Below, in pieces: positions 17,061 to 64,000 of a DNA stretch of 64,000 nucleotides (position 1 is the first letter of the stretch; each line of letters opens with the position of its first letter). Location of the stretch: assembly GCA_002412545.1 (NCBI GenBank), contig DHVG01000002.1:130095-194094 (forward strand), written 5' to 3'. The stretch is from Elusimicrobia bacterium UBA5214 (GTDB lineage Bacteria; Elusimicrobiota; UBA5214). The translations under genes and the position numbers were made by a program. The notes below the pieces were generated by a model, which had not been told where the DNA came from, did no database searches, and was given only the letters and a program-made list of their open reading frames with translations.

Positions 17061-17197
17061 TGCCGAAAAGATTTAGGTATCATTCATTTGGCAGTGGATA
17101 TGCTCGCCGAGTTACCGAAAAAACGATAAAAAGTAAAACAAAATTTGAATAAGGTAACTCGGCTTTTATTTTGAGGGGAGAGGAGGAGTAATTAAGA

Positions 17198-20600: not shown

Positions 20601-21722
20601 ATGGTAAATCCGCGCTATCAGAAACGTTTAGAAAGATGTGGTCATTTGATGAAAGAAACCGGACTGGATGTTATTCTGCTCAGTAAACCGGCTAATCTGT
20701 TTTATCTTACCGGTGACGGTCGTCTCTGTGCCTACGCGATGGTTACGCAAGGAGGTAAAGTTGCTCTTGGTGTTCCGCAGACCGATGTGGAAGATGTCAA
20801 GCAGGTGGCACATTTTGACCATCTTGTTGGTTTTGAAGATGAGGTGGGGATGATACATTCTATTGCGCATTACTTTATGCATTTTAATATTAGTAAAGGT
20901 GTATTGGGGCTGGAATATACTTTTCTCACTCAAGTAATGATGGGAATGTTTACCCATCCCCATGCCAAGCCGAAAGGGGTAACGGTCAAGGACTGTACCC
21001 ATATTATGTCTGAACTGCGTATAGTCAAGGATGCCGAGGAAATTGAAAATATCCAGAGAGCAGCAAAAGTGGCTGATGTGGGAATGGATGCGGCAGTAAA
21101 AGCGGTGAAACCAGGTCTCAGCGAAAGCCAAATTGCTGCCGAATCCGAGTATGCAATGCGGCAGAACGGTGCTGAAGGTTTTTGGCGAACTTATGTCTCC
21201 TCGGGTCCGCGGACAAATATTGCTCACGGGTTACCTACATTACGCAAACTGCAAAACGGTGATTTGGTAATGATTGATGTTCATCCAATTGTTAATGGTT
21301 ACAGTGCGGATATGTGTCGGACAGTATGCGTGGGTAAACCAACGGTAGAGCAGCAAACCGCTTAAGATTTGTATTTAAAAGCACAACAGGCAACCATCAG
21401 CAAAATCAAAGCCGGGGTCAAGATAATGGAGCTTGAAGAGACATTGCACGGAGTGCTTAAAAACGCTGGACATAGTGAGCATATTTTCGGTCCACCGATT
21501 CACGGTGTCGGTATAGAGTTTGAAGAAGCACCTTTACCACCTGGACATGCTTTTTTCCACGGTGAAAAAGAACCACCACCTTTAGAAACTAATGTAGTCA
21601 TTTCGGTAGGTAATTGCGGCTTGTATACTGGTCCTTGGGGTGTGCGCGTGGAAGACACGGTAGTTGTTGGTGCCGAGGGACCGGTTGTTCTCACCGGTTA
21701 TCCACGAAAATTGGGGAAATAG
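20601..21722 (+). pseudogene. M24-family Xaa-Pro aminopeptidase/prolidase interrupted by a single in-frame TAA at 21363-21365
   Basis: ORFs 20601-21365 and 21369-21722 are in the same frame. The junction ...GKPTVEQQTA*DLYLKAQQATI reads continuously across the stop. Metal-ligand motifs (H..GHG..H, E..V) lie in the second part. Confidence 0.55.
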
Positions 21723-21775
21723 GTGTGACCATTTCTCAAAAAGATAAAGAACTGCAGGCAGGACAACACCGTCCC

Positions 21776-22895
21776 TCAGTAGAATTTGTTAACAACGAAT
21801 TTAGCAATTCGACAGGCAGCATCAGGGAGAGAAAACTTTTTTACACGATTTTGTAATTCCTTAATTTTTTCCGGTGAATTAACCAGTTTGACAATCAAAG
21901 AGACAATTTTATCCGGTTCGGTCTCCACATAACCAAGTTCATGTTTCTTAATTAGTTCCGCATTACCTTCTTCCTGCCCGGGAGTAATATGGGTAATGAT
22001 TATCGGTTTACCAGCAGCAAGACATTCGGTTACAATTGCTCCTCCAGCTTTAGTTACCACTAAATCCGCTGCCCGTAAGTAATTAGCCATATTATCTACC
22101 CAGGAGAAAATGCGTGTTGACGGGAAATATTTTCTTTTGCTTAATTCTTGGTAAACATTCTCATACTTGCCGCAGATTACCATAATCTGTCCAGGTAGAC
22201 CTACATAATTGCTTAACTTCTTAATTACTGCAAGCAATTTTTCTATTTTTCCTAAACCAAGGGTGAAAAGGATAGTCGGCACTTCCGAGTTTAATCCTAA
22301 ATCGTTAAGGAATTTGTTCCGATTGAAAGGTTCACCAAGTTCAGGATTTACTGGGAAACCAAAGACCTTGATTTTTTCCGGATTAACCCCTTGGTTTATA
22401 ATTACTTCGGCAGTATCTTGGTTCGGAACAAAATAGTAATTGACTAATTCACTTAGCCACGAATAGTGTATAGAAATTGAGTCAGTAATTACCATTAAAT
22501 ATTTTATTTTTTGGTTAAACTTTTCGTTATATACTTCAAGGATATAATTCCAGTAAGGATGAGTAGAAATAAGCAGGTCCGGTCTCTTTTCGTTGAAAAG
22601 TTGGTAAAATGGTTTATAAAAAGGTTCAGTAAAAATGTTCATAATCCGGAATATCTGTTTACAGTTGGTAAGACGGTAGGTTAAGTCCCAGAGGGAAGGA
22701 CAATATTCAACACTTTTTTCGTAGTAGTTACGGGCAAAATTGGTAATTAAAGGATTACCAATTTTTACTAAATCAAGCACCTCAGTTTCTACTTCTTCCG
22801 GGTATCCGCCGATTTGGCGGATTGCTTCATTGAGATAACGTGCGGCAGTTAGATGTCCTGAACCATAACTTGCGGTTAAAATGAGGATTTTTTTC
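21776..22895 (-). CDS. Monogalactosyldiacylglycerol-synthase-like glycosyltransferase (MGDG_synth N-domain plus GT1 C-domain)
   Basis: MKKILILTASYGSGHLTAARYL start with RBS agagga. The C-terminal GT-B block (VTKAGGAIVTECLAAGKPIII...PGQEEGNAE) is present. Confidence 0.7.
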
Positions 22896-22997
22896 ATTTT
22901 GAAGTAATTCCTCTTAGCACTGATTACTACAGATAAAGACCCTGATGACCACGGATAAATCTGCGTAATCTGGTCTCTAATCTGTGTAATCTGCGTT

Positions 22998-24710
22998 TTA
23001 CATTTTTTCCGGTGCAGAAACACCGATTAAGTCCAACCCGGTTCGGATAATTGTTCTTACTGCTTCTACTAAACTTAGCCGGGCTAAAGTCAAATTCCTA
23101 TCTTCGGAAATTACCCGATATTTTTCGTAATAACGGTGGAACAAATTAGCCAACTCCAAGAGATAGACCGCTAAATTGTGCGGACTTAAATTTTCTGCAC
23201 AAGTTACCAGAATATCCGGGAAAAAAGAAAGTTTTTTTATTAAGTCAAGTTCTGATTTTTCTTTCAATAGTTGATAGTTGATAGTTAATAGTTGATAGTT
23301 GATTCCTTCTTTTTCTGCCTGACGGAAGATACTTACTGCACGCGTATGTGCGTATTGGATATAGTAGACCGGATTTTCCGGGGATTGTTTCTTTGCCAAG
23401 TCAAGGTCAAATTGTAATTGTGCTTCCGGTGAACGGGTAAGAAAGAAATAACGACAGGCATCTTTTCCTACCTCATCCAGTAATTGTCGCAGAGTAACAA
23501 ATTCACCTGCCCGGGTAGACATTGCTACCGGTTGTCCTTCACGGATAAGACTTACCAACTGGTAAAGAATAATCTGTAACTGCTCCGGTTTGTAACCGAG
23601 GGCTTTTATTCCGGTTTTCATCCGGGCAATGTATCCGTGGTGGTCAGCTCCCCAGAGGTTGATTAGGCGGTCAAATTTTCGTTCCAATTTATCCCGGTGG
23701 TAGGCAAGGTCACCAGCTAAATAAGTTGGACGGCCGTCAGCACGAATCAGAACCCGGTCTTTCTCATCGTTCCCTAAGGTAGATTTGAACCATAAAGCAT
23801 TGTCTTTTTCGTAGGCATATCCCTTCTCTTTCAGTTGAGAAATTGTCTCTTCCACTTTTTTCTTTTGGTAAAGGTCGGACTCGGTGGACCAAATATCAAA
23901 TTTAATACTAAAATCTTCCAAATCTTTTTTGATGTCTTCAAGGTTTTCTTCCATAGCGATTTTGGAAAAATAACTTTCTGGTTTCTTTTCTATATCGGCT
24001 GGAGTAAGAACTCCTGCTCTTTCTTGACGGGCTATCTTTGTAGCCATTTCTATAATATCCTTTATATACTCCCCACGGTATGCAGCATTATTTAACCATT
24101 CTTCTTCTTCCGGTGTTAATTTCTTCTTAAATATGAATTCTTTTATTCTTAATTTTACCGTTTTACCTAAGTTTTCAATCTGGTTGCCGATATCATTGAT
24201 ATAATACTCCCTTTTTACTTCCCAACCGAGAAAAGAAAAAATTCTGGCTAAAGAATCACCGATTGCTGCACCTCTGCCGTGTCCGACATGGAGCGGACCG
24301 GTAGGATTTGCCGAGACAAATTCAAAAAGTATTTTTTCTCTTTTACCTAAGTTTGTTTTTCCATAATTTTTTCCTTGTCCTAAAATTGTTTTTAATTCTT
24401 GATAAACTCTTTCTGGAGCAAGAGAAAAATTGAGAAAAACCGGGGGCATAAATTCGACTTTAACGAACGGAGAAGAGGGAGTGATAAGTGAAGGGATAAT
24501 TTTATTGGTAATCTCCATAATCTCCACGGCTGGTTTATCTATCTCCTGACTAATAATTGAAACAATATTACATGACCCATCAGCAGAAATGTGTGCAGGT
24601 GGAATTTCTACCGTAGGTTTTGGTAGTTTTCTATTCTCAGGAATAATTTTTTCTTTTTTTAGTTGTTCAATCAGCTGGTCAATAAAAGTATAAATTTCTT
24701 CTTTAATCAT
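22998..24710 (-). CDS. argS: Arginine--tRNA ligase
   Basis: Class I HIGH motif (PTGPLHVGHGRG), the anticodon-binding DALK domain and a C-terminal ...VSAPEKM. It contains an in-frame TAGTTGA tandem repeat (23266-23303). Confidence 0.95.
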   Translation of the reverse strand: MIKEEIYTFIDQLIEQLKKEKIIPENRKLPKPTVEIPPAHISADGSCNIVSIISQEIDKPAVEIMEITNKIIPSLITPSSPFVKVEFMPPVFLNFSLAPERVYQELKTILGQGKNYGKTNLGKREKILFEFVSANPTGPLHVGHGRGAAIGDSLARIFSFLGWEVKREYYINDIGNQIENLGKTVKLRIKEFIFKKKLTPEEEEWLNNAAYRGEYIKDIIEMATKIARQERAGVLTPADIEKKPESYFSKIAMEENLEDIKKDLEDFSIKFDIWSTESDLYQKKKVEETISQLKEKGYAYEKDNALWFKSTLGNDEKDRVLIRADGRPTYLAGDLAYHRDKLERKFDRLINLWGADHHGYIARMKTGIKALGYKPEQLQIILYQLVSLIREGQPVAMSTRAGEFVTLRQLLDEVGKDACRYFFLTRSPEAQLQFDLDLAKKQSPENPVYYIQYAHTRAVSIFRQAEKEGINYQLLTINYQLLKEKSELDLIKKLSFFPDILVTCAENLSPHNLAVYLLELANLFHRYYEKYRVISEDRNLTLARLSLVEAVRTIIRTGLDLIGVSAPEKM

Positions 24711-26991: not shown

Positions 26992-27092
26992 TCCGTTATT
27001 TCCGTTGAGTCCGTTTTGACCGTTTAGTCGGTTATTTCCGTTGAGACCGTTGAACGGGCTGAACGGACTAAACGGATTAAACGGACTTAACG
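26992..27092. repeat. Roughly 100-bp hairpin built from CCGTT/AACGG heptamer-like repeats. It fills the entire proA-nadD intercistronic gap.
   Basis: The left half is (tccgtt[atg]n)x6 and the right half is (aacgg[agt]n)x6, so the two halves are reverse complements. Confidence 0.85.
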
Positions 27093-30225: not shown

Positions 30226-30564
30226 TTATGAGTATCTTTCTTCTTGTCCAGTATGCAATTCAGGAGAATAAAGCTCGTATGTTGATAAATGGTGTTCATA
30301 CCTCACTAATTTTTCTTTTTCCAGTTGATACAATATATAGTCAAGTTCGTCAGTCGGTATATCCGAGAATGCCTGGGCTATCTCCTCACGAGAAAACACT
30401 CTGGTTCCCGGTACTTTTTGTTGTTCTTTCCTCAGCCAATTGAGAACGCTTAGTTTTCTTTTTTCCTTTCTTCCTACAAACCATTTCCATAATAACTTGT
30501 AAAGTAGATTGATAATTTTTCCTTTCACTTTTCTATTTTTCCACTTTCGGATAAATGCCGTCAA
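30226..30564 (-). CDS. Small basic hypothetical protein (possible wHTH regulator) overlapping the R-M gene start
   Basis: Lys/Arg-rich N-terminus and C-terminal SREEIAQAFSDIPTDELDYILYQLEKEKLV. It overlaps the start of 30533-33658 by 32 nt. Confidence 0.3.
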   Translation of the reverse strand: MTAFIRKWKNRKVKGKIINLLYKLLWKWFVGRKEKRKLSVLNWLRKEQQKVPGTRVFSREEIAQAFSDIPTDELDYILYQLEKEKLVRYEHHLSTYELYSPELHTGQEERYS

Positions 30565-33500
30565 TTAGTTTCTGGACTTCAATTGTCTTTTGAAGAGCGG
30601 TGACAATCTTGCAATAAGGTTTTATGTCGTTAAGTGTAGTTCCTATCTTGTCCTTCAGCCATTTATCACAAACTTGATAACCTCCGATTTGGTATTTCCA
30701 GATTTCTGGTTTTATGCCTTCAAAATATTGTTCATTATTTATATAAACTCGTCCTTTTTCATATTTTACTTTTTCAATTTTGTAATTTCCTTTACCTTGA
30801 AATTTAGCAACCGGTGGGTCGAGTTCCGCTGATTTAAGTAAATGTAAGTCAACCAGCCTTTTTCCATATTCAGCCATTTTACTGAAAAGTTTGTAATCTT
30901 TCGTTAAAGGAATTCTCGGGAAATCCATCTTTAGAAACTCGGCGTATCTTGTTCGGTAGATATTTGAGTAAAGAATAGCATAAACATAAAAGAAGATTTG
31001 TTCCGGAGACGGTATTTTTTTAAACTCTTTGGTTAATTGTTCGACTATTTCCGGAGAGAGGTTCGGTTTTTTTGCTCCGTAATCTGCTTGTGGTTCAAAG
31101 AGCATTATAACACTGCCTAAAGACCGTTTTTTAGGATTATCCTTTTTTTCTTGATATAGGTAAAGAGGGAAAAGGTAATTTATATCAAGGGCAGTAATAG
31201 ATGTTGCACCTGCAACAACTTTATCTGTAACAAAGGCATATCTCCAATCTTCTACACTTCTTGACCGTCTAATGGTAATTAAACCTAAATTTTCTCCTGC
31301 CAGCATATGGTACATAATTTCTGGACGGGGCATACAATGAAAACCACGGGATTTGCCGGTGTAATAGGTATATCTTATATCAAAAGGTCGGTATAAAATT
31401 GGTACTATTTTCTTTTTGTCTAATCCACTTTCTTCTAAATCCTTCTGAGCCAGTTCAACTTTCCAATCTCTTGCGTCTTTACCAAGGCTGTAAGCCTGCC
31501 TTGCCAATTCCGGATCAAGTTTTGAAAAGTTTAAAATAGTTTGCCAAACTTCTTCCGGTTTCCATTTGATAGTCAAATTGTCCCTCGCCGTAACTATCCC
31601 TACACTGTTAGCAAGAAAGATGTCAGTTATCTTTGGATATGAGTAGTATAACTTGAAAAGTTTTCTTTCCGTTGGAATAAAACGATAAAAAAACTCCGAT
31701 TTTAGTGATATTTTTTGCCATTTAGTTGTTTTTATATCATTTTTCAAAAGCCAATCATACTTTTTTTCCTGCAATCCCCAAAGGTCTGAATGATGAACTT
31801 CGCACTCTCTCTTTTCATCTTTCTTTTTTATGAAAAGGGCAATCGCTACTCCCTGTCGAATATCAAAGACATTTCCATCTTTAGACCCGTCAGGACATTT
31901 CCCTTTTTCTTTCGTAATATTGCCATGCAAATCTAAAATATAAATTTCATTGAAACTATTCATCAGGGATTGTCGCATTCCTCTAAAAGTTGGATTATCC
32001 AGATAACTATGATTGGTAATAAATCCTAAAATTCCTTCACCTGCTTGGTCAATTTTCCACTGGGCAAAACGAATGAATTTTACATAATCATCTTGTAGCC
32101 ATTTAGGATTTTTTTCGCCAAGCGGTTTACCATCCACCTGATAGTAAACTTTAATTTCTTTTGAAATCCATTCACCTACATTATAGGAATGTCCCGAATA
32201 AGGCGGATTGCCAAAAATAACTAAAATTGGTGTTTCCTTTTTTACCTTGCCTGCCAAATGAGATTCCTCAGAAAGGGAAACCATACCCGGAAGTTCGGTC
32301 TGGGCGAGTTCTTCCATTTCCAAAGTATTGGTTAGATAGAGTTTAAACCGGTCGTCATCCTTGAGTTCGTAGCCGAGTTCTTCTAAGAGAAAAGACATTT
32401 TGAGGTGTCCTACTGCGTAAGGTGCCATCATCAATTCAAAAGCATAAAAATTTTTGAGGATATGTTCTCTGATAAGATTTTCTTTTCCACCTTCTCCATA
32501 TTTGTGAACAAATTCATTTACTACTAATTTAGATGCTTCTGCTAAAAAAGTAAGTGTTCCTGCCGCAGGGTCCAAAACGGTAACTAATTCGCTTGCAAAT
32601 CCATCCTTTCTATTAAAATGTTCCTTCAAAATACGATGCAAAGAACGAACGATATAAGATACGACGGGTTCTGGTGTGTAATATACGCCCCTCTTTTCTC
32701 TTGTTTGTGGGTCATATTCAGCCAAGAAGGTTTCATAAAAGTGGACAATTGGGTCTTTACCTTTGCCTTCATGAAAATATTTGTGAAGGATATTTTTTAC
32801 ATCAGTAACTGCTAATACTTCTGAAATATCATCAATAATCCATTCCATTTGTTGGGAAGGTTTACCCAGTGAAATAAAATGAAAAACATCCCTTAGAATA
32901 CCTATAGTTGGTGGAATCTTATCGTAGGCAAGTTTTCTATTAAACTCGTTTTCTGAACGAGTTCGGGCAGCAAAAAGTCCGTAGGTAATGGTTTGGGAAT
33001 AAAGGTCAGCAAAATCCTCTTTTGTAAGACCACTTATTAGATATTTTCTGAATGCTTCATAAAATCCTAAAATAAATCCTTTTCCTATTTCTTCTTCTTC
33101 TTTTAGTTCTTGGGCAACGACTTCGTCTCTAAGGAAACGTGTCCTATTTGCTAATTCAATTGCTAGTGTTTTAGCATCATAAACCTTTGGCAAAGAAAAA
33201 GAAAAGAATTTCTCAAGCAGTTTAACAAAATCCTGTTCTTTTTCAACAGGTGGCACTGTTTTAAGTTTATGAACAATAAAGGGTCTACCAATAAGAACTT
33301 TATCTATTAAAGTACCGTTGTGATAACGTCTGAATTCAAAAAAGTTAGTTAATATAAGATTGGGGAAGGTATGCCGATAGCGTTTTAACTGTTCCGTTTC
33401 TTCTGTCTGGTCTAAATCCTCGTTCTTTGGTTCCTTGGCTTCAATATACCCAACGATATGCTGACTTCCATCCCAGACCCTGAAGTCAGGATTACCGGCT

Positions 33501-33658
33501 TCAGTTTTCTTTGGTAGAGTGGTAATATGGATATTTTTTTTGCCGACCGATTCTATATATTCCTGTAGTAATCCTTCAAGGATTGAGTAGTAACTCTCTT
33601 CCCTTGCGTCTCCATGTTGGGCAACTCCAAAGATTTTTTCTAAATATGCTTTCAACAT
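30533..33658 (-). CDS. MmeI-like Type IIL/IIG restriction-modification enzyme: N-terminal PD-(D/E)xK nuclease, N6-adenine MTase and a C-terminal TRD
   Basis: DFRVWDGSQHIVGYIEAKEP is a D-x13-EAK nuclease motif at the N-terminus. MTase motif I is VLDPAAGTLTFL and motif IV is IFGNPPYSG (NPPY). Total length is 1041 aa. Confidence 0.75.
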   Translation of the reverse strand: MLKAYLEKIFGVAQHGDAREESYYSILEGLLQEYIESVGKKNIHITTLPKKTEAGNPDFRVWDGSQHIVGYIEAKEPKNEDLDQTEETEQLKRYRHTFPNLILTNFFEFRRYHNGTLIDKVLIGRPFIVHKLKTVPPVEKEQDFVKLLEKFFSFSLPKVYDAKTLAIELANRTRFLRDEVVAQELKEEEEIGKGFILGFYEAFRKYLISGLTKEDFADLYSQTITYGLFAARTRSENEFNRKLAYDKIPPTIGILRDVFHFISLGKPSQQMEWIIDDISEVLAVTDVKNILHKYFHEGKGKDPIVHFYETFLAEYDPQTREKRGVYYTPEPVVSYIVRSLHRILKEHFNRKDGFASELVTVLDPAAGTLTFLAEASKLVVNEFVHKYGEGGKENLIREHILKNFYAFELMMAPYAVGHLKMSFLLEELGYELKDDDRFKLYLTNTLEMEELAQTELPGMVSLSEESHLAGKVKKETPILVIFGNPPYSGHSYNVGEWISKEIKVYYQVDGKPLGEKNPKWLQDDYVKFIRFAQWKIDQAGEGILGFITNHSYLDNPTFRGMRQSLMNSFNEIYILDLHGNITKEKGKCPDGSKDGNVFDIRQGVAIALFIKKKDEKRECEVHHSDLWGLQEKKYDWLLKNDIKTTKWQKISLKSEFFYRFIPTERKLFKLYYSYPKITDIFLANSVGIVTARDNLTIKWKPEEVWQTILNFSKLDPELARQAYSLGKDARDWKVELAQKDLEESGLDKKKIVPILYRPFDIRYTYYTGKSRGFHCMPRPEIMYHMLAGENLGLITIRRSRSVEDWRYAFVTDKVVAGATSITALDINYLFPLYLYQEKKDNPKKRSLGSVIMLFEPQADYGAKKPNLSPEIVEQLTKEFKKIPSPEQIFFYVYAILYSNIYRTRYAEFLKMDFPRIPLTKDYKLFSKMAEYGKRLVDLHLLKSAELDPPVAKFQGKGNYKIEKVKYEKGRVYINNEQYFEGIKPEIWKYQIGGYQVCDKWLKDKIGTTLNDIKPYCKIVTALQKTIEVQKLIDGIYPKVEK

Positions 33659-33668
33659 TTTATTCTTT

Positions 33669-34664
33669 TCAATGTTTAGTTTTCTTTTTTTCCCTCTCTC
33701 TTAAACACATCTCAGCAGCGAGTTTAACTGCGGAGAACATCGGGCGTGCGTCAGCGAGATTTTTACCGGCAATGTCAAAAGCAGTGCCGTGTCCGGGTGA
33801 AGTGCGAATGAAGGGCAAACCAAGGGTAACATTGACTAAAGAATAAGGGTCAAGCAGTTTTAGAGGTATCATTGCCTGGTCGTGATACATTACAATAATT
33901 AAATCATATTTTTTCCACCACTGGAAAACCGTATCTGCCGGTAAAGGACCTGTAACTTGCAACTTGTAACCTGTAACTTGTTTGATTGCCGGGATGATTA
34001 TCTCTTTTTCTTCCTTACCGAGAACTCCGCCTTCGCCGCGGTGCGGATTTAAGGCACAAACCGCAATTCTTAGTTTAGCAATAGAGAAATATTTTTCTAA
34101 TGCTTTGGCTCCAAGTTTAATTGCCAAAATAATTTTTTCTTTAGTTAAACTATTAGCGACATCTTTTAAAGGTAAATGCCGGGTAACCATTGCTACTTTA
34201 AGTTTTTTGTTCACCATCAGCATAAGCAAATTCTTTTTCCCGGTTAATTCAGCAAGGATTTCGGTATGTCCGGAATAATTCAATCCGGCACGGTTTAATG
34301 CTTCTTTAGATATCGGTGCAGTAACCAAACCGTCCACCTGTCCATTCTGCACCAATTCTACTGCTTTTTTGATATATTCATAACTTAATTGTCCATACTC
34401 AGAGTTAGTCATACCGAAGTTTAGTTTCCTAATCTTGCCGATATTGATTAATTCAAATTCTCTATTGGAAACGACTGGAGGGTATTTTTTAAGATAAAAG
34501 TCTAAAACTGATTTTGTACCGATAACTACCGGTTGGCAAATTTGGTAAACTTCTTTCTTGGCAAGTGTTTTGATGACTATTTCCGGACCGATACCTGCAG
34601 GGTCACCGATTGTGATTGCAAGAGACGGCTTTTTACTCAATTTCGCTAATTTTGATTGTAGCAT
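33669..34664 (-). CDS. pdxA: 4-hydroxythreonine-4-phosphate dehydrogenase
   Basis: ITIGDPAGIGPEIV, HTE, NPHRGEGG and SPGHGTAFDIAGK are PdxA signatures. It contains an in-frame repeat (33949-33980). Confidence 0.85.
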   Translation of the reverse strand: MLQSKLAKLSKKPSLAITIGDPAGIGPEIVIKTLAKKEVYQICQPVVIGTKSVLDFYLKKYPPVVSNREFELINIGKIRKLNFGMTNSEYGQLSYEYIKKAVELVQNGQVDGLVTAPISKEALNRAGLNYSGHTEILAELTGKKNLLMLMVNKKLKVAMVTRHLPLKDVANSLTKEKIILAIKLGAKALEKYFSIAKLRIAVCALNPHRGEGGVLGKEEKEIIIPAIKQVTGYKLQVTGPLPADTVFQWWKKYDLIIVMYHDQAMIPLKLLDPYSLVNVTLGLPFIRTSPGHGTAFDIAGKNLADARPMFSAVKLAAEMCLREREKKKTKH

Positions 34665-38873: not shown

Positions 38874-39036
38874 TGTTTCCTATAAAAACAAGTATAGTAA
38901 AACAATGACTATTTTAGCAAATTTTATTCTCCTTCGCCCCGATAGGTCATGGTCTACCGAGAATACCCCCCCGATGTAACATTGGGACAGAAATGAAGGC
39001 GAGGAGAAGGAGAATTCCGCTCTGATACCCCGCCCC

Positions 39037-39068
39037 TTAGGGCGGGGAGCTTCATTTTTTGGAGTTGT
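39037..39068 (+). terminator. Plus-oriented intrinsic-terminator-like hairpin in the mfd-pilB intergenic region
   Basis: ccccgccc-ctta-gggcgggg followed by agcttcatttttt. The flanking genes are on the minus strand. Confidence 0.4.
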
Positions 39069-49229: not shown

Positions 49230-50066
49230 TTAGATGGTTAACCGGGTAGGTTTTTTCTGGTTAAGTTTTATTTTTCCGTTAGCAAGATTTTTTATGGTAG
49301 AAATGATTAAAGGGAACTCTCTTTTTAAACCTTCAGCACGGATTTTTTTGAAAAGTGGCTCATTTTCACCTTCCTCTTCAATAATCCGCTCTAAAGTTTT
49401 AGGAGTAAACATCTTCACAATTTCTTTCCCCTTCCTTTTATCCTTCCCCACTTGTGGGGGAGGGAGAGGATGGGGGGGTGTTTTCAGTTTCGCCTCCAAC
49501 TGTCTCCGCAAACGGTCAAATTCTTTACCCACAATTGGATAGGTGCAATAACTGATTGGAGGACCAGCGTCAAGTTCGGGAGTGACTAAATGCATCATTA
49601 CCCCCGATTCTTTTTCTTTATTTCTAATCAGTTGCCAGATTACTTCCTGCCAGGTGCCTTTCGGTCCACCCGGTTTTGCTGGGTGTAAGTTTATCATTTT
49701 ATACCTTCGGCAAATTTCAGCATTGACAATTAACATATATCCAGCAAGAACAATCAGGTCAACTGGATATTTTTCAATGAGTTTGATTACTTGATGATGA
49801 TATTCGGTACGCCATTTTCCCAGGTTTTCTTTCCGTAAATCCGGTTTAAATTTTAATGCAGAAAAAGTTACCAAAGGAAATTCGTATTTCTTTACTAAAG
49901 CAAAAAATTTATCGCTTTCCGGATTTTCACCTTCTTCACGGTTAGAAAAAACGAAACTAATTTCCGTATTTAGTATTTCGTTTTTTGTAATTTGTTTAAC
50001 CACCGTATTTAATAAATCCCTTGCTGCTTTATCTCTTCCGGTTGAAAACCAACCAATTTTATACAT
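49230..50066 (-). CDS. purN: Phosphoribosylglycinamide formyltransferase-like (PurN family) with a C-terminal extension
   Basis: The formyl-transferase N-domain has IGWFSTGRDKAARDLL and VDLIVLAGYMLIV. The gene ends the pur/pyr operon and contains a GC-rich in-frame palindrome (49441-49490). Confidence 0.6.
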   Translation of the reverse strand: MYKIGWFSTGRDKAARDLLNTVVKQITKNEILNTEISFVFSNREEGENPESDKFFALVKKYEFPLVTFSALKFKPDLRKENLGKWRTEYHHQVIKLIEKYPVDLIVLAGYMLIVNAEICRRYKMINLHPAKPGGPKGTWQEVIWQLIRNKEKESGVMMHLVTPELDAGPPISYCTYPIVGKEFDRLRRQLEAKLKTPPHPLPPPQVGKDKRKGKEIVKMFTPKTLERIIEEEGENEPLFKKIRAEGLKREFPLIISTIKNLANGKIKLNQKKPTRLTI

Positions 50067-50152: not shown

Positions 50153-50240
50153 AGGTGGTTAGGTGGCTAAGTGGTCAGGTAGTTAGTTTAAACCTAATAA
50201 CTTCCTTACTTCACTTACTCACTTAACCACTTAACCACTT
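50153..50240. repeat. Inverted pair of heptamer tandem arrays (GGTGGTTA... / ...TTAACCAC). One arm encodes the C-terminus and stop codon of the PfkB kinase gene.
   Basis: ggtggttaggtggctaagtggtcaggtagttagtt - taaacctaataa - cttccttacttcacttactcacttaaccacttaaccac. Confidence 0.8.
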
Positions 50241-51908: not shown

Positions 51909-52883
51909 TTAAATAAGTTTTACTTCTTGTTTACCGGAAACGATTTTACCAATAATAACCGAGTTTTTCAGTAACTTATGAACTCGTGAACTTATCAACC
52001 CTGAACCAAAACGGTTCAGGGTAAACTTATCAACTATTATCACCATGCCAACTCCCATATTAAATATACGGAACATTTCTTTTTCCGGAATTTTACCTTT
52101 ATCCTGAATGATGCGGAAAATTTCCGGTACTTGCCAACTTTTTTTATCAATTACCGCTTGACAATTCTTGGGTAAAATACGAGGTATATTGTCGTAGAAT
52201 CCACCACCGGTGATGTTGACGATTCCGCTGATGGCTGATGGCTGACGGCGGATGGCGGATAATATCTCTTTGACATAAATCTTGGTAGGGGTGAGGAGTT
52301 CTTCACCGTATTTAATTAGTTCTTTTTTGGAGAAAATTTTGCGCACTAAGGAGAAACCGTTTGAATGTAAGCCACTTGAAGGTAGACCGATAATTAAATC
52401 ACCGGGTTTAATTTTTCTACCATCAATAACTTTATTTTTTTCTACCAAACCGACGGTAAAACCAGCTAAATCGTATTCACCTTCATGATAAAATCCGGGC
52501 ATTTCAGCAGTTTCACCACCAAGAAGGATACAATCTGCCTGACAGCATCCTTCGTTTATACCTTTGATAATTTGTTCGGCAACTTTTAAATCCAATTTAC
52601 TACAAGCGAAATAATCAAGAAAAAATAAAGGTTTTGCTCCACAACAGATTACATCGTTGACATTCATTGCTACTAAATCAACCCCGACGGTATTGTGTTT
52701 ATTTAAGAGAAAAGCGAGTTTAAGTTTTGTGCCGACACCGTCACTGGAAGCAGAAAGATAATGTTTCTTATCTAATGGATATAAACCGCTAAATCCGCCG
52801 ATTACCGGAGCAATTTTTTTAATCCTTTTTACGAAAAGGTTACCTTTGTCAATGTCTACACCCGCTTGTTTGTAAGTTACCAT
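51909..52883 (-). CDS. purM: Phosphoribosylformylglycinamidine cyclo-ligase (AIR synthetase)
   Basis: VTYKQAGVDIDKGN, DGVGTKL and LVAMNVNDV are PurM signatures. In-frame AGCCATC repeat at 52226-52262. Confidence 0.9.
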   Translation of the reverse strand: MVTYKQAGVDIDKGNLFVKRIKKIAPVIGGFSGLYPLDKKHYLSASSDGVGTKLKLAFLLNKHNTVGVDLVAMNVNDVICCGAKPLFFLDYFACSKLDLKVAEQIIKGINEGCCQADCILLGGETAEMPGFYHEGEYDLAGFTVGLVEKNKVIDGRKIKPGDLIIGLPSSGLHSNGFSLVRKIFSKKELIKYGEELLTPTKIYVKEILSAIRRQPSAISGIVNITGGGFYDNIPRILPKNCQAVIDKKSWQVPEIFRIIQDKGKIPEKEMFRIFNMGVGMVIIVDKFTLNRFGSGLISSRVHKLLKNSVIIGKIVSGKQEVKLI

Positions 52884-54928: not shown

Positions 54929-54980
54929 CACCCTCTCCTTAATCCTCTCCCCTTGAGGGAGAGGGACGGGGTGAGGGGGA
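54929..54980. repeat. GC-rich compound palindromic element with core cctctccccttgagggagagg
   Basis: The 21-bp core is the exact reverse complement of the core at 46589-46609. Flanking C-run/G-run arms are also inverted. Confidence 0.85.
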
Positions 54981-56001: not shown

Positions 56002-56375
56002 AGTTTCGTAAAACAGACTTTCCTCCAGTCACAGGAAAAGCAGGCAAATTCTTGCCATTTAGGTAATATCTTTGATATCTTACTTTTTATTTTTCTCCAG
56101 AGAAGAGCATCTCCTTTTTTTAAATTTAACAATTTTAATGCCATTTTATCAAGTGCTTCTATTTCTTTTTCATAACCGGGTTTATAAATACAGATATTTG
56201 TTTTCAGATGTGGACAATACGCACATACTGCATCTGCACCGTCAACAATTTTTGTTTTTGTATCGTTTTCTAAATTTTTGATGATACCTTTAAGATTAGA
56301 TATAAACTTTTTACTATATCCTTCACCTTCAAAGAAATGTAAACAGATGAGATGGTGTCCACGCAGTTTAATCAT
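55998..56375 (-). CDS. Cys-rich DUF1284-like protein
   Basis: MIKLRGHHLICLHFF... with CAYCPH and CFSCDW Cys pairs. Confidence 0.45.
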   Translation of the reverse strand: MIKLRGHHLICLHFFEGEGYSKKFISNLKGIIKNLENDTKTKIVDGADAVCAYCPHLKTNICIYKPGYEKEIEALDKMALKLLNLKKGDALLWRKIKSKISKILPKWQEFACFSCDWRKVCFTKL

Positions 56376-56380
56376 TTACT

Positions 56381-56462
56381 CAGTTAATTCGGTTTAGTCG
56401 GTTAATTCTGTTTGGTCCGTTCAACGGTCATAACGGACATAACCGACAAAACGGACAAAACA
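56381..56462. repeat. CCGTT/AACGG heptamer-array hairpin between DUF1284 and pyrD (same family as 26992-27092)
   Basis: ttaattcggtttagtcggttaattctgtttggtccgtt | caacggtcataacggacataaccgacaaaacggacaaaac. Confidence 0.85.
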
Positions 56463-56472
56463 TTTTTTGCGA

Positions 56473-57501
56473 TCATTCGTGTATCATACTGCCGGTTAGT
56501 TTACTCAAGGTAATTTTTTGTATTTTAAGATATTGTTTTAGACCGATAAGTATTTTCTGTGGTAAAAATGGGTCACGGAAAAGAGCGCTACCTAAAGCAA
56601 TTGCTTTTGCACCGACAAGAAAAAATTCTATTGCATCTTGAGGACTATTTATTCCACCCATACCGATAATTGGTATTTTAACCTTTTGGTAAGTTTCGTA
56701 AATCATCCGTAAAACAATTGGTTTAATTGCTGGACCAGATAAACCACCAAAGACTGGTGAGTGGGAAGTGGTGAGTGGTGAGTGGGGAAAGGCAAGGGCG
56801 GAGAAAGTGTTGACTAAAGAGAGAGCATCGGCACCGGCAGATTCGGCAGTTTTGGCAATTACAGTTATATCCGTAACATTAGGGGTAAGTTTAGCAATTA
56901 CCGGTAATTTGGTTACCTTTTTTACTCTCTTTACCACCTCGTAAGTCAGTTCTGCATCCTGCGAGATAAGCGAAATTACTCCTTGCTCGGAGTTTATCCC
57001 CCCATTCTTGCTTTCGCCTGCCCCCGCGTCTCCCGACGCAAGTCGGGGCGGCGGGCAAGAAAGCAGGGGGGGACTCTTTGCTCTTGGCTCTTTGCTACGA
57101 ACATTCGGACAAGAAAGATTTAATTCCAGAGCAGATATACCTTTTTCTTTGTCTAATCTACGAGAAATCTCAGCGAATTCTTCTGCGTTCTCCGCAGCAA
57201 TACTTACGACTATTGGTATTTTAAGTTTTCTTTTTAAAAAAGGTAATTTTTCTTTTAGAAAAATTTCCAAACCCGGATTTTCCAGACCAATTGAATTAAT
57301 CATTCCTTCCATTGTTTCTACAATTCTCGGCGACGGATTACCCGCACGCGGTTTAAGAGTAACTGTCTTTGTAGTTATCGCCCCGAAAACATTCAGGTTA
57401 ATTAACTTACTGTATTCTTCACCAAAACCAATAATTCCACTGGCAACAAGGAGTGGATTTTTTAGTTTTATTCTGGCAATTTCAGTTGATAAATTAACCA
57501 T
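56473..57501 (-). CDS. pyrD: Dihydroorotate dehydrogenase catalytic subunit (class 1B)
   Basis: NPLL.ASG, ...ELN.SCPN..., GG and other TIM-barrel FMN motifs. It carries a ~35-aa low-complexity insertion (AKSPPLLSCPPPRLASGDAGAGESKNGGINSEQG) encoded by a GC-rich palindrome at 56997-57098, plus a heptamer repeat at 56745-56790. Confidence 0.85.
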   Translation of the reverse strand: MVNLSTEIARIKLKNPLLVASGIIGFGEEYSKLINLNVFGAITTKTVTLKPRAGNPSPRIVETMEGMINSIGLENPGLEIFLKEKLPFLKRKLKIPIVVSIAAENAEEFAEISRRLDKEKGISALELNLSCPNVRSKEPRAKSPPLLSCPPPRLASGDAGAGESKNGGINSEQGVISLISQDAELTYEVVKRVKKVTKLPVIAKLTPNVTDITVIAKTAESAGADALSLVNTFSALAFPHSPLTTSHSPVFGGLSGPAIKPIVLRMIYETYQKVKIPIIGMGGINSPQDAIEFFLVGAKAIALGSALFRDPFLPQKILIGLKQYLKIQKITLSKLTGSMIHE

Positions 57502-57547: not shown

Positions 57548-59254
57548 TCATTTCAAAATCGTGATTCCATATTTATCTATTAATATTTTTGTAGTTTTGT
57601 CTATTAATAAATCTTTTTCTACGCTTTTGGCGGAAATCAATTGCTCAGGTAGTTTATCTATTTTCACCCAGTTTCCTTCTACAAATTTAGCAATTTGTTC
57701 AATTTTATGCGGATAAAGTATACCCTGATGCCAAGGTTCCCAATTTGTTTTGTAACCTTGCGCATAGAGTATACCATCACTCAAATAAATATTTTCTACA
57801 TAAAAATTAGGCGAAATCGTTCGTAGAGCCAAAGTTGAAACATTTATTTCATCAATTTCGGAATACTTCTCACCTTCCATTTCAGGGTAGATTCTCAAAA
57901 TATAAATTAAATTTTCTGTTCCAAGTACATAGTTCCTGTCAGGTGCGGAGTAGAGTCTGTAGTTATTTGAACCACTTATATGTTTGATAGTTAAGCTATC
58001 TAAGTCTAATATATCCAACCCACGATTCGTTTGCATAAGCACTTTTTTTCCAAGAGAAGTAATTAGTATTTCATACCTCATGGGTTCTTGTACAAATTGG
58101 GCAATTTCCATTATCCATCTCTGTTCATCAAGGGAAAATATTTTATTTCTAAGCACAAAATTCTTATGCATACCGAAATAAGGAATTTTCTCCATCATAT
58201 CTAATTGTGGAATTTTACTTAATTTATTTACAATTTTTTCCATTTTTTCTTCAGAGTAATCTTCAAAATATTTTTTTAGGTCTGAATCTTGATGGTATCG
58301 TTTGTAGCCATCTTGGTATCCTCTTAGAAATCTTGCTAAGTCAAATCTTGGGTAAGATTTAATCATAGAAATATCGTTGAGCAACCTGTCAATCGTTTCT
58401 TCTGTCTGAATTAGTCGGAATATCTTCCATTTTCCGTTATTCTTGTCGTATTCCGCTATTCTCGTATCATAATAATTTTGGAAACCAACAAGAACCCAAG
58501 CATATTTAGGAGATACAACAAAACAGTCTATAGTGGCATATGGACTTTGATCCCCCATTAATTCGTCATGATGATAAGTCTTCCATTCCCCAGAGATTTT
58601 ATTGTAGCAAAGCAATACACCCTTTGACCTCCTCTCAGCAAATGGTACAATCCATACGAAAGTAGTTTCAATAACTGCATAATTATTACCCGGTGGTTCA
58701 TCTATTCCTAATTTAGTATATATATGATTCAAGTTCTCCCACAGACCGATTTTAGTGTCATAAATATCGATACGATGGAAACTTGATATCCAGATGGTTT
58801 CTGTTTTCTGGTCATATACAAACTTTAAATTTTCATTTGCTCCGAATTCCGTGCTTTGACTTACCTTAAAATCATCTACAAATTGTTTGCTGGTTAAATC
58901 AAAAATCTTAATTCCATCGCGCCAAGTTCCCACCCATAATTTGTTTTCTATTTTGGCAAGTGAGGAAATTCCACTCTCTGATTTTGGCAGTCGGTATACC
59001 AAAAGGCCGTTGTCCGAAGGATTAAACTCACCTAAACCGCTTGTAAGAGGTAGGTACCATCTTCCTTCGAATTCTACTGCCGCGGCACCATTAATTGCGG
59101 TAGTATTAGGCAACCAAATTGTTTTTCCATCGGTTTGGTAAAGAGGAACAAATTGAGGCGGGAAATCTTCACCAAAACAAATACTACAACAAATAAATAA
59201 CATATTTAACCAGAATACTATTTTTGTTAGTTTTAACATTTTTTCAAATTTCAT
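57548..59254 (-). CDS. Secreted 568-aa hypothetical protein (possible beta-propeller repeats) embedded between pyrK and pyrD
   Basis: Signal peptide MKFEKMLKLTKIVFWLNMLFICCSICFG. Repeated W.GTW.DGI.IFD / IWISSFHRIDIYD-like blades. Its start overlaps the pyrK stop (ATGA). Confidence 0.5.
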   Translation of the reverse strand: MKFEKMLKLTKIVFWLNMLFICCSICFGEDFPPQFVPLYQTDGKTIWLPNTTAINGAAAVEFEGRWYLPLTSGLGEFNPSDNGLLVYRLPKSESGISSLAKIENKLWVGTWRDGIKIFDLTSKQFVDDFKVSQSTEFGANENLKFVYDQKTETIWISSFHRIDIYDTKIGLWENLNHIYTKLGIDEPPGNNYAVIETTFVWIVPFAERRSKGVLLCYNKISGEWKTYHHDELMGDQSPYATIDCFVVSPKYAWVLVGFQNYYDTRIAEYDKNNGKWKIFRLIQTEETIDRLLNDISMIKSYPRFDLARFLRGYQDGYKRYHQDSDLKKYFEDYSEEKMEKIVNKLSKIPQLDMMEKIPYFGMHKNFVLRNKIFSLDEQRWIMEIAQFVQEPMRYEILITSLGKKVLMQTNRGLDILDLDSLTIKHISGSNNYRLYSAPDRNYVLGTENLIYILRIYPEMEGEKYSEIDEINVSTLALRTISPNFYVENIYLSDGILYAQGYKTNWEPWHQGILYPHKIEQIAKFVEGNWVKIDKLPEQLISAKSVEKDLLIDKTTKILIDKYGITILK

Positions 59255-60105
59255 TCCCAGATTATTTGATTTGCTTCAAAAACTGGTCCATCTTTACAGA
59301 CGGTCTTGTAGACGAAATGCTGGTGGCTAGTGGTTAGTGATTGATGGCTGGTTTTCACAACACATCCTCGGCAAGCACCAAGACCACAAGCCATCATTGC
59401 TTCTAAAGATACCTGATAGGGAATTTTGTATTTTTGTGTAATTTTAGCAATTTCTTTTAGCATTGCATAGGGACCACAAGCATATATATTAGTTATGAGT
59501 GATGAGTTATGAGTTATGAGTGAATTTCTGAACAGGTCAGTGACAAGACCTTTATAACCAAGGGAACCGTCTTCAGTAGCGAGTTTAACCTGGCAACCAA
59601 GTTTTTTGAAATTATCAATGCAGAGGAGGTCGTTTTTTGTTTTTGCACCAAGGAAAACAGTTAAAGGTGTAAGGTGTGAAGTGTAAAGTGTAATTAACTT
59701 CTGAGCAAGGAAGAGAAGTGAGGCGACACCGGTGCCACCGGCGATGAGGATGGGTGATTGGGTGATTGGGTGATTGAGTGATTGAGTAAAACCGTTACCG
59801 AGGGGACCAAGCACATCTAAAGTATTACCTTTTTTCTTTCGGGATAAGAGTTCAGTTCCTTTACCGACAACTTTGTAGATTATTTCAACCTGATTTTTTT
59901 TGACTTTCGCGATACTGAAAGGACGACGAAGGTAAGTACCTTCTCCACAATAAATATGGACAAATTGTCCCGGTTGAGCAATTTGGGCAATCTGTGGGGC
60001 AGAAAAAATTAAACGAAAATAGCCGGATGAGATTTCTTTCTGGTCAGTGATTAAGGATTGTAAATGATAAACTTTATTCTGAATAGACAATTTTGCCGTT
60101 AACAA
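59251..60105 (-). CDS. pyrK: Dihydroorotate dehydrogenase electron-transfer subunit
   Basis: FAD/NAD-binding FNR-like fold (RPFSIA, GGTGVA) and a C-terminal 2Fe-2S Cys cluster (CGLGACRGC). It holds four separate in-frame tandem-repeat insertions. Confidence 0.8.
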   Translation of the reverse strand: MLTAKLSIQNKVYHLQSLITDQKEISSGYFRLIFSAPQIAQIAQPGQFVHIYCGEGTYLRRPFSIAKVKKNQVEIIYKVVGKGTELLSRKKKGNTLDVLGPLGNGFTQSLNHPITQSPILIAGGTGVASLLFLAQKLITLYTSHLTPLTVFLGAKTKNDLLCIDNFKKLGCQVKLATEDGSLGYKGLVTDLFRNSLITHNSSLITNIYACGPYAMLKEIAKITQKYKIPYQVSLEAMMACGLGACRGCVVKTSHQSLTTSHQHFVYKTVCKDGPVFEANQIIWE

Positions 60106-61354
60106 TAGTATTGACTACCTTACCCGTTACCTGCCAGCCAAGAAAAGGTGAATTTTTACTTTTGGAAACAAAATTTTCTACTTTCCATTTCTTGTTCAAG
60201 TCAACAATGGTAATATCGGCTGGAGAACCAGGTTTCAGTTGTCCGGAGTTGAGTTTCAAAACTTGTGCCGGATTAATCGTGACTTTGGCGATTGCTTCCA
60301 TTAACGAGATAATTTTCTTATTTACTAATTCAGTAACCACCAAGGAAAGTAAAGTTTCCAAACCGATAATCCCAAACGGTGCTAAATCGTATTCTTTATT
60401 TTTTTCTTCTTCAGTATGTGGTGCATGGTCAGTAGCGATACAGTCAATTGTTCCGTCTGTTAATCCCTTTTTGATTGCTTCCACATCTTCTTTCGTTCTT
60501 AAAGGAGGATTAACTTTTGTATTTGTGTCAAATTGAGAAACTTTCTCTTCAGTAAGAGTGAAATATTGTGGTGCAGTTTCACAGGTAACCCGGATACCTC
60601 GTTTTTTTGCTTGCCGGATTAGTTCTACCGAGCCAGCAGTAGAAATATGAGCAATATGCAAATGCCCACTGGTAAGTTCAGCTAAGATTATATCCCTTGC
60701 TACCATTGCTTCTTCGGCTTCTTTTGGTATCCCGTGGAGACCTAAAATTGTAGAATAGTATCCTTCATTCATTGCTCCATCTTTAGATAAATTTTTGTCT
60801 TCACAATGGGAAATTACTGGCAAGTCAAACATTTTTGCATATTCTAATGCCCGACGCATAATCAGACTATTCATTACTGTTTCACCGTCATCAGAAATTG
60901 CTACGATGCCGGCTTTTTTCAATTCACCAATTTCGGATAATTCTTCACCTAACGAACCTTTAGTGATTGCACCAATTGGTAAAACATTGACCACACCTTC
61001 ATTTTTTGCTTTGAGCAGAATAAATTCAACCGTGGTTTGGTCGTCAATTACTGGATGAGTATTTGGCATACAACAGACGGTAGTAATACCACCTTTTGCT
61101 GCTGCCCGTGTCCCAGTAGCAATCGTCTCTTCTTCTTCATGTCCGGGTTCACGCAAATGGGTATGCATATCAATAAGTCCGGGAATAACAATTTTACCTT
61201 TAGCATCAATGACTTTTATGGCTGATGGCTGTTGGCTGATGGCTGATGGCTTACCGATAGAAACAATTTTGCTATCTTCAACTAAAATATCGGTGATTCT
61301 GTTCGTTTTACTTGCCGGGTCAATTACTCTACCACTTTTAACGAGCAACTTCAT
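60074..61354 (-). CDS. pyrC: Dihydroorotase
   Basis: Amidohydrolase metal ligands DMHTHLREPG, ...HxH and D...H. In-frame AGCCATC repeat at 61213-61245. Confidence 0.85.
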   Translation of the reverse strand: MKLLVKSGRVIDPASKTNRITDILVEDSKIVSIGKPSAISQQPSAIKVIDAKGKIVIPGLIDMHTHLREPGHEEEETIATGTRAAAKGGITTVCCMPNTHPVIDDQTTVEFILLKAKNEGVVNVLPIGAITKGSLGEELSEIGELKKAGIVAISDDGETVMNSLIMRRALEYAKMFDLPVISHCEDKNLSKDGAMNEGYYSTILGLHGIPKEAEEAMVARDIILAELTSGHLHIAHISTAGSVELIRQAKKRGIRVTCETAPQYFTLTEEKVSQFDTNTKVNPPLRTKEDVEAIKKGLTDGTIDCIATDHAPHTEEEKNKEYDLAPFGIIGLETLLSLVVTELVNKKIISLMEAIAKVTINPAQVLKLNSGQLKPGSPADITIVDLNKKWKVENFVSKSKNSPFLGWQVTGKVVNTIVNGKIVYSE

Positions 61355-63350: not shown

Positions 63351-63395
63351 TCTCCATCTCTCCTTACTTTCCTAACTTTCTAACTCTTTAACTAT

Positions 63396-64000
63396 CTAAC
63401 TCCCTAACTTCCTAACTGCTTTTATCCCGATATCTCTTCGGTAATGCATCTTCTCAAATTTTATTTTTTCTACCGCGCTATATGTATTCTTTATCGCTTT
63501 TTCTATATTTTCACCTAAACCAGTTACACCGAGCACTCTCCCGCCATTGGTCACTAAAGTTGACCGTTCACCGTTCACCGTTAACCGTTTAGTGCCAGCA
63601 TGGAAAACAGTTATATTTTGCATTTTTTTCGTTTCTTCAAGACCAAATATTTCTTTACCTTTTTCGTAATCACCCGGATAGCCACCAGAAGCGAGGACGA
63701 CACAAACTGACGAACAAGCAGACTGGTGATTAGTGGTTAGTGATTGGTAATCGGACAAATTTTTGTCAATTGTGGCTAAACAGAGGTCAACTAAATCTTC
63801 ATTAAGCAAAGGTAAAGTTACCTGTGCTTCCGGGTCACCGAAACGACAATTGAACTCTAAAACTTTTGGTCCTTCTTCAGTAATCATTAAACCAAAATAG
63901 ATTATCCCCCGATAGTCCAGTTTTTCTGCATTTATCCCTTTTATAAAGTTAGCAAATATTTCTTTATCTATTTTTTTTCTAATTTTTTCGTTAATAATCG
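63396..64000 (-). CDS. purD: Phosphoribosylamine--glycine ligase (partial; the N-terminus lies beyond the window end)
   Basis: GIIYFGLMITEEGPKVLEFNCRFGDPE ATP-grasp block. The frame is open past 63887 to the window edge. Two in-frame heptamer repeats (63545-63575, 63715-63745). Confidence 0.85.
   Translation of the reverse strand, partial: IINEKIRKKIDKEIFANFIKGINAEKLDYRGIIYFGLMITEEGPKVLEFNCRFGDPEAQVTLPLLNEDLVDLCLATIDKNLSDYQSLTTNHQSACSSVCVVLASGGYPGDYEKGKEIFGLEETKKMQNITVFHAGTKRLTVNGERSTLVTNGGRVLGVTGLGENIEKAIKNTYSAVEKIKFEKMHYRRDIGIKAVRKLGS

Follow-up and report, generated by a model that had tools for sequence, protein, structure and literature searches.

The DNA examined here, a stretch of 64,000 nucleotides (64 kb; hereafter the window) from contig DHVG01000002.1 of the bacterium UBA5214, carries an operon with the gene order pyrB-pyrC-pyrK...pyrD. 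Its source bin is deposited as Elusimicrobia (HCJ66149.1, GCA_003530275.1); the relatives of its PyrK protein are mostly labelled Candidatus Omnitrophota. We identify the 284-residue open reading frame (ORF) at 59251-60105 (minus strand, TTG start) as pyrK, which encodes the electron-transfer subunit of dihydroorotate dehydrogenase B. The ORF matches the Pfam families FAD_binding_6, NAD_binding_1 and DHODB_Fe-S_bind, aligns with the Lactococcus lactis PyrK (1EP3_B) at E=4e-34, and has every feature that marks a PyrK: an FAD-binding barrel, an NAD-binding domain, a 2Fe-2S domain at the C terminus that contains four cysteines, and linkage to pyrD. The subject of this report is a set of four short tandem-repeat arrays, with units of 7-8 nt, that lie inside this gene.

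The pyrK gene and its four arrays

To judge from its sequence, pyrK is intact, functional and under purifying selection. The invariant columns of the PyrK alignment include RRPFS, GGTG and the cluster cysteines C240, C245, C248 and C270, and the FAD, NAD and 2Fe-2S motifs are all intact; the original prediction was thus right that the arrays leave the FNR and 2Fe-2S motifs untouched. Outside the arrays, the ratio of nonsynonymous to synonymous rates (dN/dS) is 0.16-0.18, similar to that of pyrC and pyrD, which together with the intact motifs rules out a pseudogene.

Tandem Repeats Finder (TRF) calls three of the four arrays, all of which lie inside the ORF. That at loop site 1 (59751-59784, on the minus strand like the other three) consists of 4.2 copies of the 8-nt unit CAATCACC (96% matches, TRF score 61) and encodes TQSLNHPITQSP, residues 107-118, in the linker joining the FAD barrel and the NAD domain. 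At site 2 (59662-59693), 4.4 copies of the 7-nt unit TTACACT (80% matches, score 41) encode LITLYTSHLTPL at residues 137-148, and at site 3 (59487-59521), 5.0 copies of the 7-nt unit ACTCATA (89% matches, score 56) encode NSLITHNSSLIT at residues 194-205; peptides spanning the arrays would come, for example, from GFTQSLNHPITQSPILIAGG. The array at site 4 (59320-59352) falls below the TRF threshold, having 18 of 26 period-7 matches, and encodes TSHQSLTTSHQ, residues 252-262, between the third and fourth 2Fe-2S cysteines. Such a score is reached by 0.46% of all 33-nt windows and by 1 of 10,000 shuffles; the site 4 sequence is a genuine, though degenerate, heptamer array. The four arrays are therefore as first described, and the peptides originally quoted for them are correct.

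An AlphaFold model of PyrK, with an overall predicted local distance difference test score (pLDDT) of 76.8, places the arrays in coil or at the ends of helices and strands, at low pLDDT. Array 1 is coil at 107-118, with pLDDT below 50 at residues 110-113; arrays 2 and 3 each take in a helix end and coil (137-148 and 194-205); and array 4 is the tip of a beta-hairpin (252-262). All four coincide exactly with gaps in the alignment of PyrK to 1EP3_B, in keeping with the earlier suggestion of tolerant loop positions. The net gains over 1EP3_B at these gaps are small (+1, +4, +5 and +7 residues for arrays 1-4), so that the arrays for the most part take the place of loop sequence and hardly lengthen the protein.

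The arrays are most likely translated, given that they lie in frame within the ORF. Whether their lengths are exact multiples of 3 bp had been raised as a check; at 34, 32 and 35 nt by TRF, and 33 nt for the fourth, they were judged as a set to correspond neither to multiples of 3 nor to an integral number of units. It is array and residual flanks together that preserve the frame. At site 3, a perfect ACTCATA array would hold a TAA stop codon, which the unit variant TCATCA removes.

It might be argued that the arrays are an artefact, chance or a sign of decay, that is, assembly errors, ordinary low-complexity loops or the marks of a pseudogene, and the degenerate array 4, invisible to TRF, would fit such a view. 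However, the sequence is identical in three assemblies, the ORF is intact with invariant motifs and the low dN/dS given above, and a strict detector picks out 7 arrays of period 7, 3 of period 8 and 2 of period 9 in the window, and not one with a period of 4-6 or 10-12, whereas 20 Markov-3 simulations yield no array at all. We regard this explanation as scarcely credible.

Array sites in related genomes

We compared pyrK in 15 related genomes and the window, 16 genes in all, with arrays called by TRF. In the related genes, too, the three main sites carry arrays of 7-8-nt units in about 4.4 copies, with site 1 occupied in 10/16, site 2 in 7/16 and site 3 in 9/16 genes, and all but one of the period-7/8 arrays in the 16 genes fall within the same four loops. 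Given that the same three or four loop sites hold arrays in most of the 15 relatives, the original view of four independent insertions in one gene does not hold. Nor do the arrays behave as added segments, since in the relatives the loops are of equal length with or without a detectable array. The units in relatives are unrelated or distantly related (TACCGAT, CGAAAGA, CGCTAAA, AAACTGGC and ACCCAAA are examples from site 1), site 2 holds other arrays and hairpin elements, and neither the encoded peptides nor the unit sequences are conserved. At site 3, L010 (45% protein identity) has a similar unit, CTCACAA. Over a deep lineage the arrays keep their positions, with turnover of the units.

Among GTDB species representatives we found no relative with more than 50% PyrK identity. 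Two closer relatives, L002 and L003, are 82-93% identical to the window in PyrB, PyrC, PyrD, PyrR and PurE, yet only 69% and 60% identical in PyrK, and both have different units from the window at sites 1 and 2. The L002 array at site 3 (ACTCATA) is the same as the window's, residue for residue; the original prediction had allowed that a segment with the same residues in an orthologue would be native sequence, and on that footing array 3 is native there rather than an insertion. At site 4, codon alignment reveals a conserved non-repeat segment, TRMTTDKRQARITADK, in both L002 and L003, which array 4 has replaced in the window's lineage.

The synonymous divergence (dS) among the window lineage, L002 and L003 is 0.66-0.84. 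Orthologous arrays in these genomes are each internally homogeneous, differing from one another by changes found in every unit: CAATCACC, ATTACCG and CACCAGT at pyrK site 1, AGCCATC and CCAGCCAA in pyrC, and AATCACY, AATCACC and AATCTGS in purD. Merely inherited arrays would lose their periodicity at this distance, and such homogenised, lineage-specific units thus point to ongoing turnover. On this evidence of orthologous units that are homogeneous yet differ at dS ~0.7, and on the dN/dS of pyrK, the earlier claim of an active process, rather than decay, is upheld.

Over 6.4 kb the three assemblies of this organism show 5 substitutions between them, and none of the arrays differs. Copy-number variation, which the original prediction had proposed looking for, is therefore absent among these three assemblies (no reads were included), as is the strain-level variation by slippage that characterises long simple sequence repeats (SSRs). 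Near-identical strains of the relatives differ at array sites by recombination tracts, whole-cassette replacement, hairpin indels and one 63-nt deletion, and a single-unit change was seen in none of the strain comparisons.

Could the arrays be adaptive, serving as flexible linkers, as regulatory sites at the mRNA level or as phase-variable frameshift switches of the neuO type? The conserved position across deep lineages would suit a function, as would the lack of structure in the arrays as single strands (all four pyrK arrays have a minimum free energy, MFE, of 0, i.e. no single-strand fold), and NeuO shows that translated heptanucleotide repeats can function (PMC13001214). The neuO repeat AAGACTC, of the E. 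coli K1 phage CUS-3, is a coding-region heptanucleotide that is translated if the frame is kept; it occurs in 3-53 copies, with frequent out-of-frame alleles, and confers a phase-variable accessory function (PMC13001214). The window arrays, in contrast, have 3-5 copies, no length variants and housekeeping enzymes as hosts. They form no hypervariable tract with out-of-frame alleles, given that copy number never exceeds 5.3 and that 16/16 pyrK orthologues are in frame; with the three assemblies identical as well, we reject phase variation. Units and peptides are unconserved, and array-free lineages have equal loop length. Taken together, an adaptive role strikes us as improbable.

Some further observations concern the pyrK locus of the relatives. 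The closest PyrK relatives (P0002, P0003, P0005-P0008) have no precomputed Pfam NAD_binding_1 match, though the domain is clear in the alignment; probably, arrays and hairpin inserts break the profile match in these proteins. L204, L205, L206 and L207 are four independent assemblies of one relative, all of which break 28 nt 5' of pyrK, suggesting that the pyrC-pyrK junction contains a repeat or varies between strains. In L207, a deletion of 63 nt has taken out the GGTG NAD-binding motif. On the other side of the gene, pyrD directly follows pyrK in L003 and L208, while in L204 a YHS/HMA protein and a 669-aa protein lie between the two; in the window the intervening gene (57548-59254, minus strand) is a 568-aa ORF with no Pfam match, unrelated to the L204 gene there. 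Because its content differs in this way, the junction between pyrK and pyrD is a variable insertion point.

Arrays and hairpin elements beyond pyrK

The original prediction concerned pyrK only. We find that the array phenomenon is genome-wide and not special to this gene. The window holds ∼24 arrays of 7-9-nt units, 18 of them within ORFs and six intergenic, the host genes including those for ArgRS, PdxA, PurM, a YggS-like protein, fumarase, PyrC, PyrD and PurD as well as PyrK, and one gene may hold several (four in pyrK, three in the YggS-like gene). In 243 kb from this and related genomes we counted 47 period-7/8 arrays, with a median length of 31 nt (interquartile range 29-33) and 2.9-5.3 copies, never more (median 4.4); the coding/non-coding split of this census used a crude ORF test only. 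Arrays of period 4-6 are absent from 243 kb of related DNA. At least 12 distinct units occur in the 64 kb, and only AGCCATC (3 loci) and CACTCAC (2 loci) recur. Across the 84 sequences scanned (83 fetched loci and the window), 60 have no arrays, and most of the array-densest loci carry the label Omnitrophota or Elusimicrobia. When metagenome contigs were scanned for AGCCATCAGCCATCAGC, at least 120 stretches were returned, at GC contents of 0.38-0.75; many are in long same-strand ORFs, and intragenic heptamer arrays are therefore widespread.

Because a 7-nt array is read in all three frames, it matters that a unit be free of stops in each of them. No coding-strand frame holds a stop in 13/17 intragenic units, while 12/17 have stops on the antisense strand, and a variant unit at the critical position spares the arrays of the 4 stop-prone units, among them ACTCATA in pyrK. 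Of the six intergenic arrays, five are untranslatable in the direction of transcription. From these counts, the arrays in genes are clearly filtered for translatability. All genes of the window are co-oriented with GC skew, and the coding strand of the arrays is G-poor, for which the stop-codon filter alone is a sufficient explanation. We also considered a replication-strand bias behind the G-poor coding strand and set it aside, as it is inseparable from gene orientation here and the intergenic arrays also lie in opposite orientations.

Several arrays in neighbouring genes, all on the minus strand, illustrate the pattern. In pyrC, an AGCCATC array (61218-61251) encodes KPSAISQQPSAI, and the same unit recurs at the unlinked positions 13783-13815 (YggS-like) and 52227-52260 (PurM). 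A CCACTCA array in pyrD (56755-56785) encodes HSPLTTSHSP; the unit of L003 at this site is another one, of 8 nt. In purD, an AACGGTG array (63559-63589) accounts for 8 codons more than in L003, whose purD has no array at this site, and L002 has a different array; a second purD array, of AATCACT/AACCACT (63726-63745), exists as three unit variants in three genomes, L003 having a hairpin there too.

Other repeats of the window are of related form. Intergenic blocks at 26992-27092 and 56375-56461 consist of inverted 9-nt-unit arrays with the core AACGGAC (GTCCGTT...AACGGAC) and are predicted to form long hairpins; the same core is found in intragenic arrays at 978-1014 (8 nt, fumarase) and 63559-63589 (7 nt, purD). 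An inverted pair of 8-nt arrays (AGGTGGTT at 50153-50186 and AACCACTT at 50200-50240) lies just 3' of a pfkB-family kinase gene, and an AGTTAGRN array of 6.4 copies (63366-63417) spans the region from the purD stop codon to the purE ribosome-binding site.

Unlinked genes share units more often than expected, with 4 identical pairs against 0.2 expected (P=0.0005). Array 4 of pyrK and the purD array at 63731-63745 have an exact 15-mer in common; by eye, the shared sequence is 18 nt long and is read in the same frame in both. In L208, the pyrK site-2 array matches an array in pyrD, 1.2 kb away, at 23/26 positions, and L003, its sister, has a different cassette at pyrK site 2. The identity of units at unlinked genes argues for copying between loci.

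Some arrays have GC-rich hairpins, 24-75 nt long, nested within them, both in the window (at 6762-6800 and, in pyrD, at 57010-57072) and in L002, L003, L206 and L208. The pyrD hairpin is part of an in-frame insert of 105 nt relative to L003 (57010-57096, minus strand), made up of a short GCAAAGA array and the nested GC-rich palindrome, with a fold of -60.6 kcal/mol. The same hairpin, with TCAACC flanks, is found at site 2 of L206 and at site 3 of both L003 and L208, and a 21-nt hairpin indel distinguishes L003 from L208, which are near-identical around it. At site 3 of L002, the junction of two units has received a GC-rich hairpin of 30 nt, a precise insertion without duplication. We examined whether the arrays might be target-site duplications of hairpin elements, and rejected this given the precise L002 insertion and the lack of a common flanking motif. 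As a separate observation, this 37% GC genome has GC-rich palindromes at 6762-6800, 11170-11207, 49454-49480 and 57010-57072, which lie in frame within genes for a BadF/BcrA-type activase, an EB_dh-domain protein, a formyltransferase and pyrD, and in the intergenic intervals 39024-39053 and 54955-54980; those at 6762 and 57010 start with the same CCCCCTGCTT motif.

These data raise a second possibility, namely that the arrays are ∼30-nt mobile cassettes, written or copied by an element-linked mechanism related to the GC-rich hairpin elements, and that local slippage is not their source. The arrays have a fixed size of about four units, similar to that of the window's intergenic arrays, and a four-unit preference is known in other phyla too (PMC4692102; PMC2700814). 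Identical units at unlinked loci, the pyrK/pyrD match in L208, the 15-18 nt common to pyrK and purD, the hairpins embedded between array units, the TCAACC-flanked hairpin at different sites in different genomes and the overwriting of a conserved segment by array 4 can all be read in this way. However, we found neither a terminal motif of the arrays, nor a common flanking motif, nor a target-site duplication, the L002 hairpin entered without duplication, and Pfam scans of those window ORFs of at least 120 codons judged to be real genes detected no transposase, RAYT-like enzyme or reverse transcriptase. The window also contains at least 12 different units, and homogenised lineage-specific units at orthologous sites fit turnover in place better. 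We consider mobile cassettes unlikely, though deserving of some weight.

The features just described have a parallel in the cyanobacteria. Elhai et al. in 2008 are said to have found, in Nostoc, STRR heptamer families that are dispersed and have 21-30-nt hairpin-forming mobile elements embedded in their arrays. The window arrays resemble the STRR/SDR system in that a unit is dispersed at several loci and hairpins are embedded in arrays, but they belong to a different phylum and appear to differ in unit sequence from the STRR1-3 units. We know of no description of a conserved array position in the loops of essential enzymes for the cyanobacterial system.

The remainder of the window can be summarised briefly. 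Rfam, at the gathering score, gives no match in the pyrK region; over the whole window it finds one element only, a c-di-GMP-I riboswitch (RF01051, 59.8 bits) at 16933-17067 (plus strand), with a type II/IV secretion ATPase gene downstream (17192-18319). At ∼21400-24000 the genes converge, those on the left being on the plus strand and those on the right on the minus strand, and cumulative GC skew peaks, as expected at a replication terminus. An M24 peptidase ORF ending at 21365 covers half of its Pfam model. Adjoining pdxA and mfd, at 30533-33700 (minus strand), is a gene for a 1055-aa type ISP restriction-modification enzyme (N6_Mtase + Type_ISP_C).

Origin of the arrays and comparison with known systems

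The explanation that we consider best, and on balance probable as a whole, is that of genome-wide 7-8-nt arrays that are translated passengers of loops, turned over at the level of DNA and filtered by selection. The pyrK arrays would be members of a genome-wide population of ∼31-nt, ∼4.4-copy arrays of 7-8-nt units, which lie in frame in many housekeeping genes of this uncultured lineage, and at their four loop-coding sites they would be presumably neutral, forming no functional part of the enzyme. A process acting on DNA would create the 7-nt periodicity and keep re-homogenising the units, most likely by slipped-strand mispairing or by conversion between units, with occasional copying of an array from locus to locus. 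Purifying selection would then retain those arrays that keep the frame, lack stops in three frames and sit in length-tolerant loops.

Some of our data sit uneasily with this explanation. Slippage was never directly observed, the three assemblies being identical at all arrays, and the near-identical strains of relatives differ by recombination tracts, whole-cassette replacement and hairpin indels, not by one-unit changes. Slippage by one unit would shift the frame of an essential gene, so that homogenisation needs length-neutral conversion or compensated events. The narrow 29-33-nt size, seen too in the six intergenic arrays (28-52 nt), is not predicted by simple slippage. Finally, that the arrays are translated is a prediction from the open reading frame. 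It is conceivable, though we think it doubtful, that an unrecognised and largely sequence-independent process of DNA writing or copying, coupled to the GC-rich hairpin elements, makes cassettes of fixed size (about four units, or 30 nt).

How, then, do the arrays compare with known repeats? Among long SSRs of prokaryotes, PMC4679880 and PMC4692102, in summarising Mrazek et al. (2007), describe 7-nt units as strongly over-represented relative to other lengths, with polymerase slippage as the proposed cause. By the same accounts, heptanucleotide long SSRs are mostly intergenic and under-represented in coding regions, where units of a multiple of 3 are favoured (PMC4679880, PMC4692102). The window arrays are similar in being head-to-tail copies of units within the 5-11-nt range, 7-nt units among them, in excess over chance; they differ in being mostly intragenic, in frame and at conserved loop positions.

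Geobacter metallireducens has a four-heptamer element at 49 sites, some intergenic and some intragenic, and a single gene may hold several (Aklujkar et al. 2009, PMC2700814). The window arrays likewise run to about four heptamers in tandem and are found at many places in and between genes. The Geobacter element, however, has one GC-rich consensus, GGGACCG, and is read as regulatory RNA (PMC2700814), whereas no single consensus unit unites the arrays of the window, which have many units and a mostly G-poor coding strand; the Geobacter study made no cross-species comparison. The heptamers GGGNATC and GGGGAYT of Xanthomonas and Nostoc show inverted array pairs and a four-unit preference, the latter explained by G-quadruplexes (Rehm et al. 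2015, PMC4692102). The pair at 50153-50240 recalls these inverted pairs. For the pyrK arrays we reject a G-quadruplex or other secondary structure, since they do not fold and have no four G-tracts on either strand; the G-quadruplex explanation of the four-unit preference is thus not general.

A further comparison is with the palindromic elements of Rickettsia, selfish DNA that sits in frame in unrelated metabolic genes at fold-compatible positions (PMC10969869). Those are ∼150-bp palindromes encoding a conserved peptide (PMC10969869), whereas the pyrK arrays are ∼31-nt, non-palindromic tandem repeats that do not fold, and only the accompanying GC hairpins, which lie in relatives and in genes nearby, fold and are similar. 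Our literature search found no paper linking Omnitrophota with such repeats. The dense in-frame occupancy of essential-enzyme loops by arrays appears to be new, as do the conservation of array position across a deep lineage with turnover of the units and the nesting of hairpins outside the cyanobacteria.

Heptanucleotides are the most over-represented long simple repeats in bacteria, and both their origin and their four-unit preference lack an explanation. Should the cassette-writing process be true, it would offer one explanation for the four-unit preference in Geobacter, Xanthomonas, Nostoc and this lineage, and would be a standing generator of loop diversity in essential proteins. The arrays described here indicate that the preference does not require G-quadruplexes. 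They also matter for the annotation of metagenome-assembled genomes, as they lower apparent protein identity (60-69% for PyrK against 82-93% for its neighbours) and may explain the missing NAD_binding_1 match in relatives. Above all, this lineage is a clean comparative system for such repeats, in which the same loop sites of essential enzymes carry genome-specific, homogenised units, subject to a translatability filter and accompanied by nested mobile hairpins.

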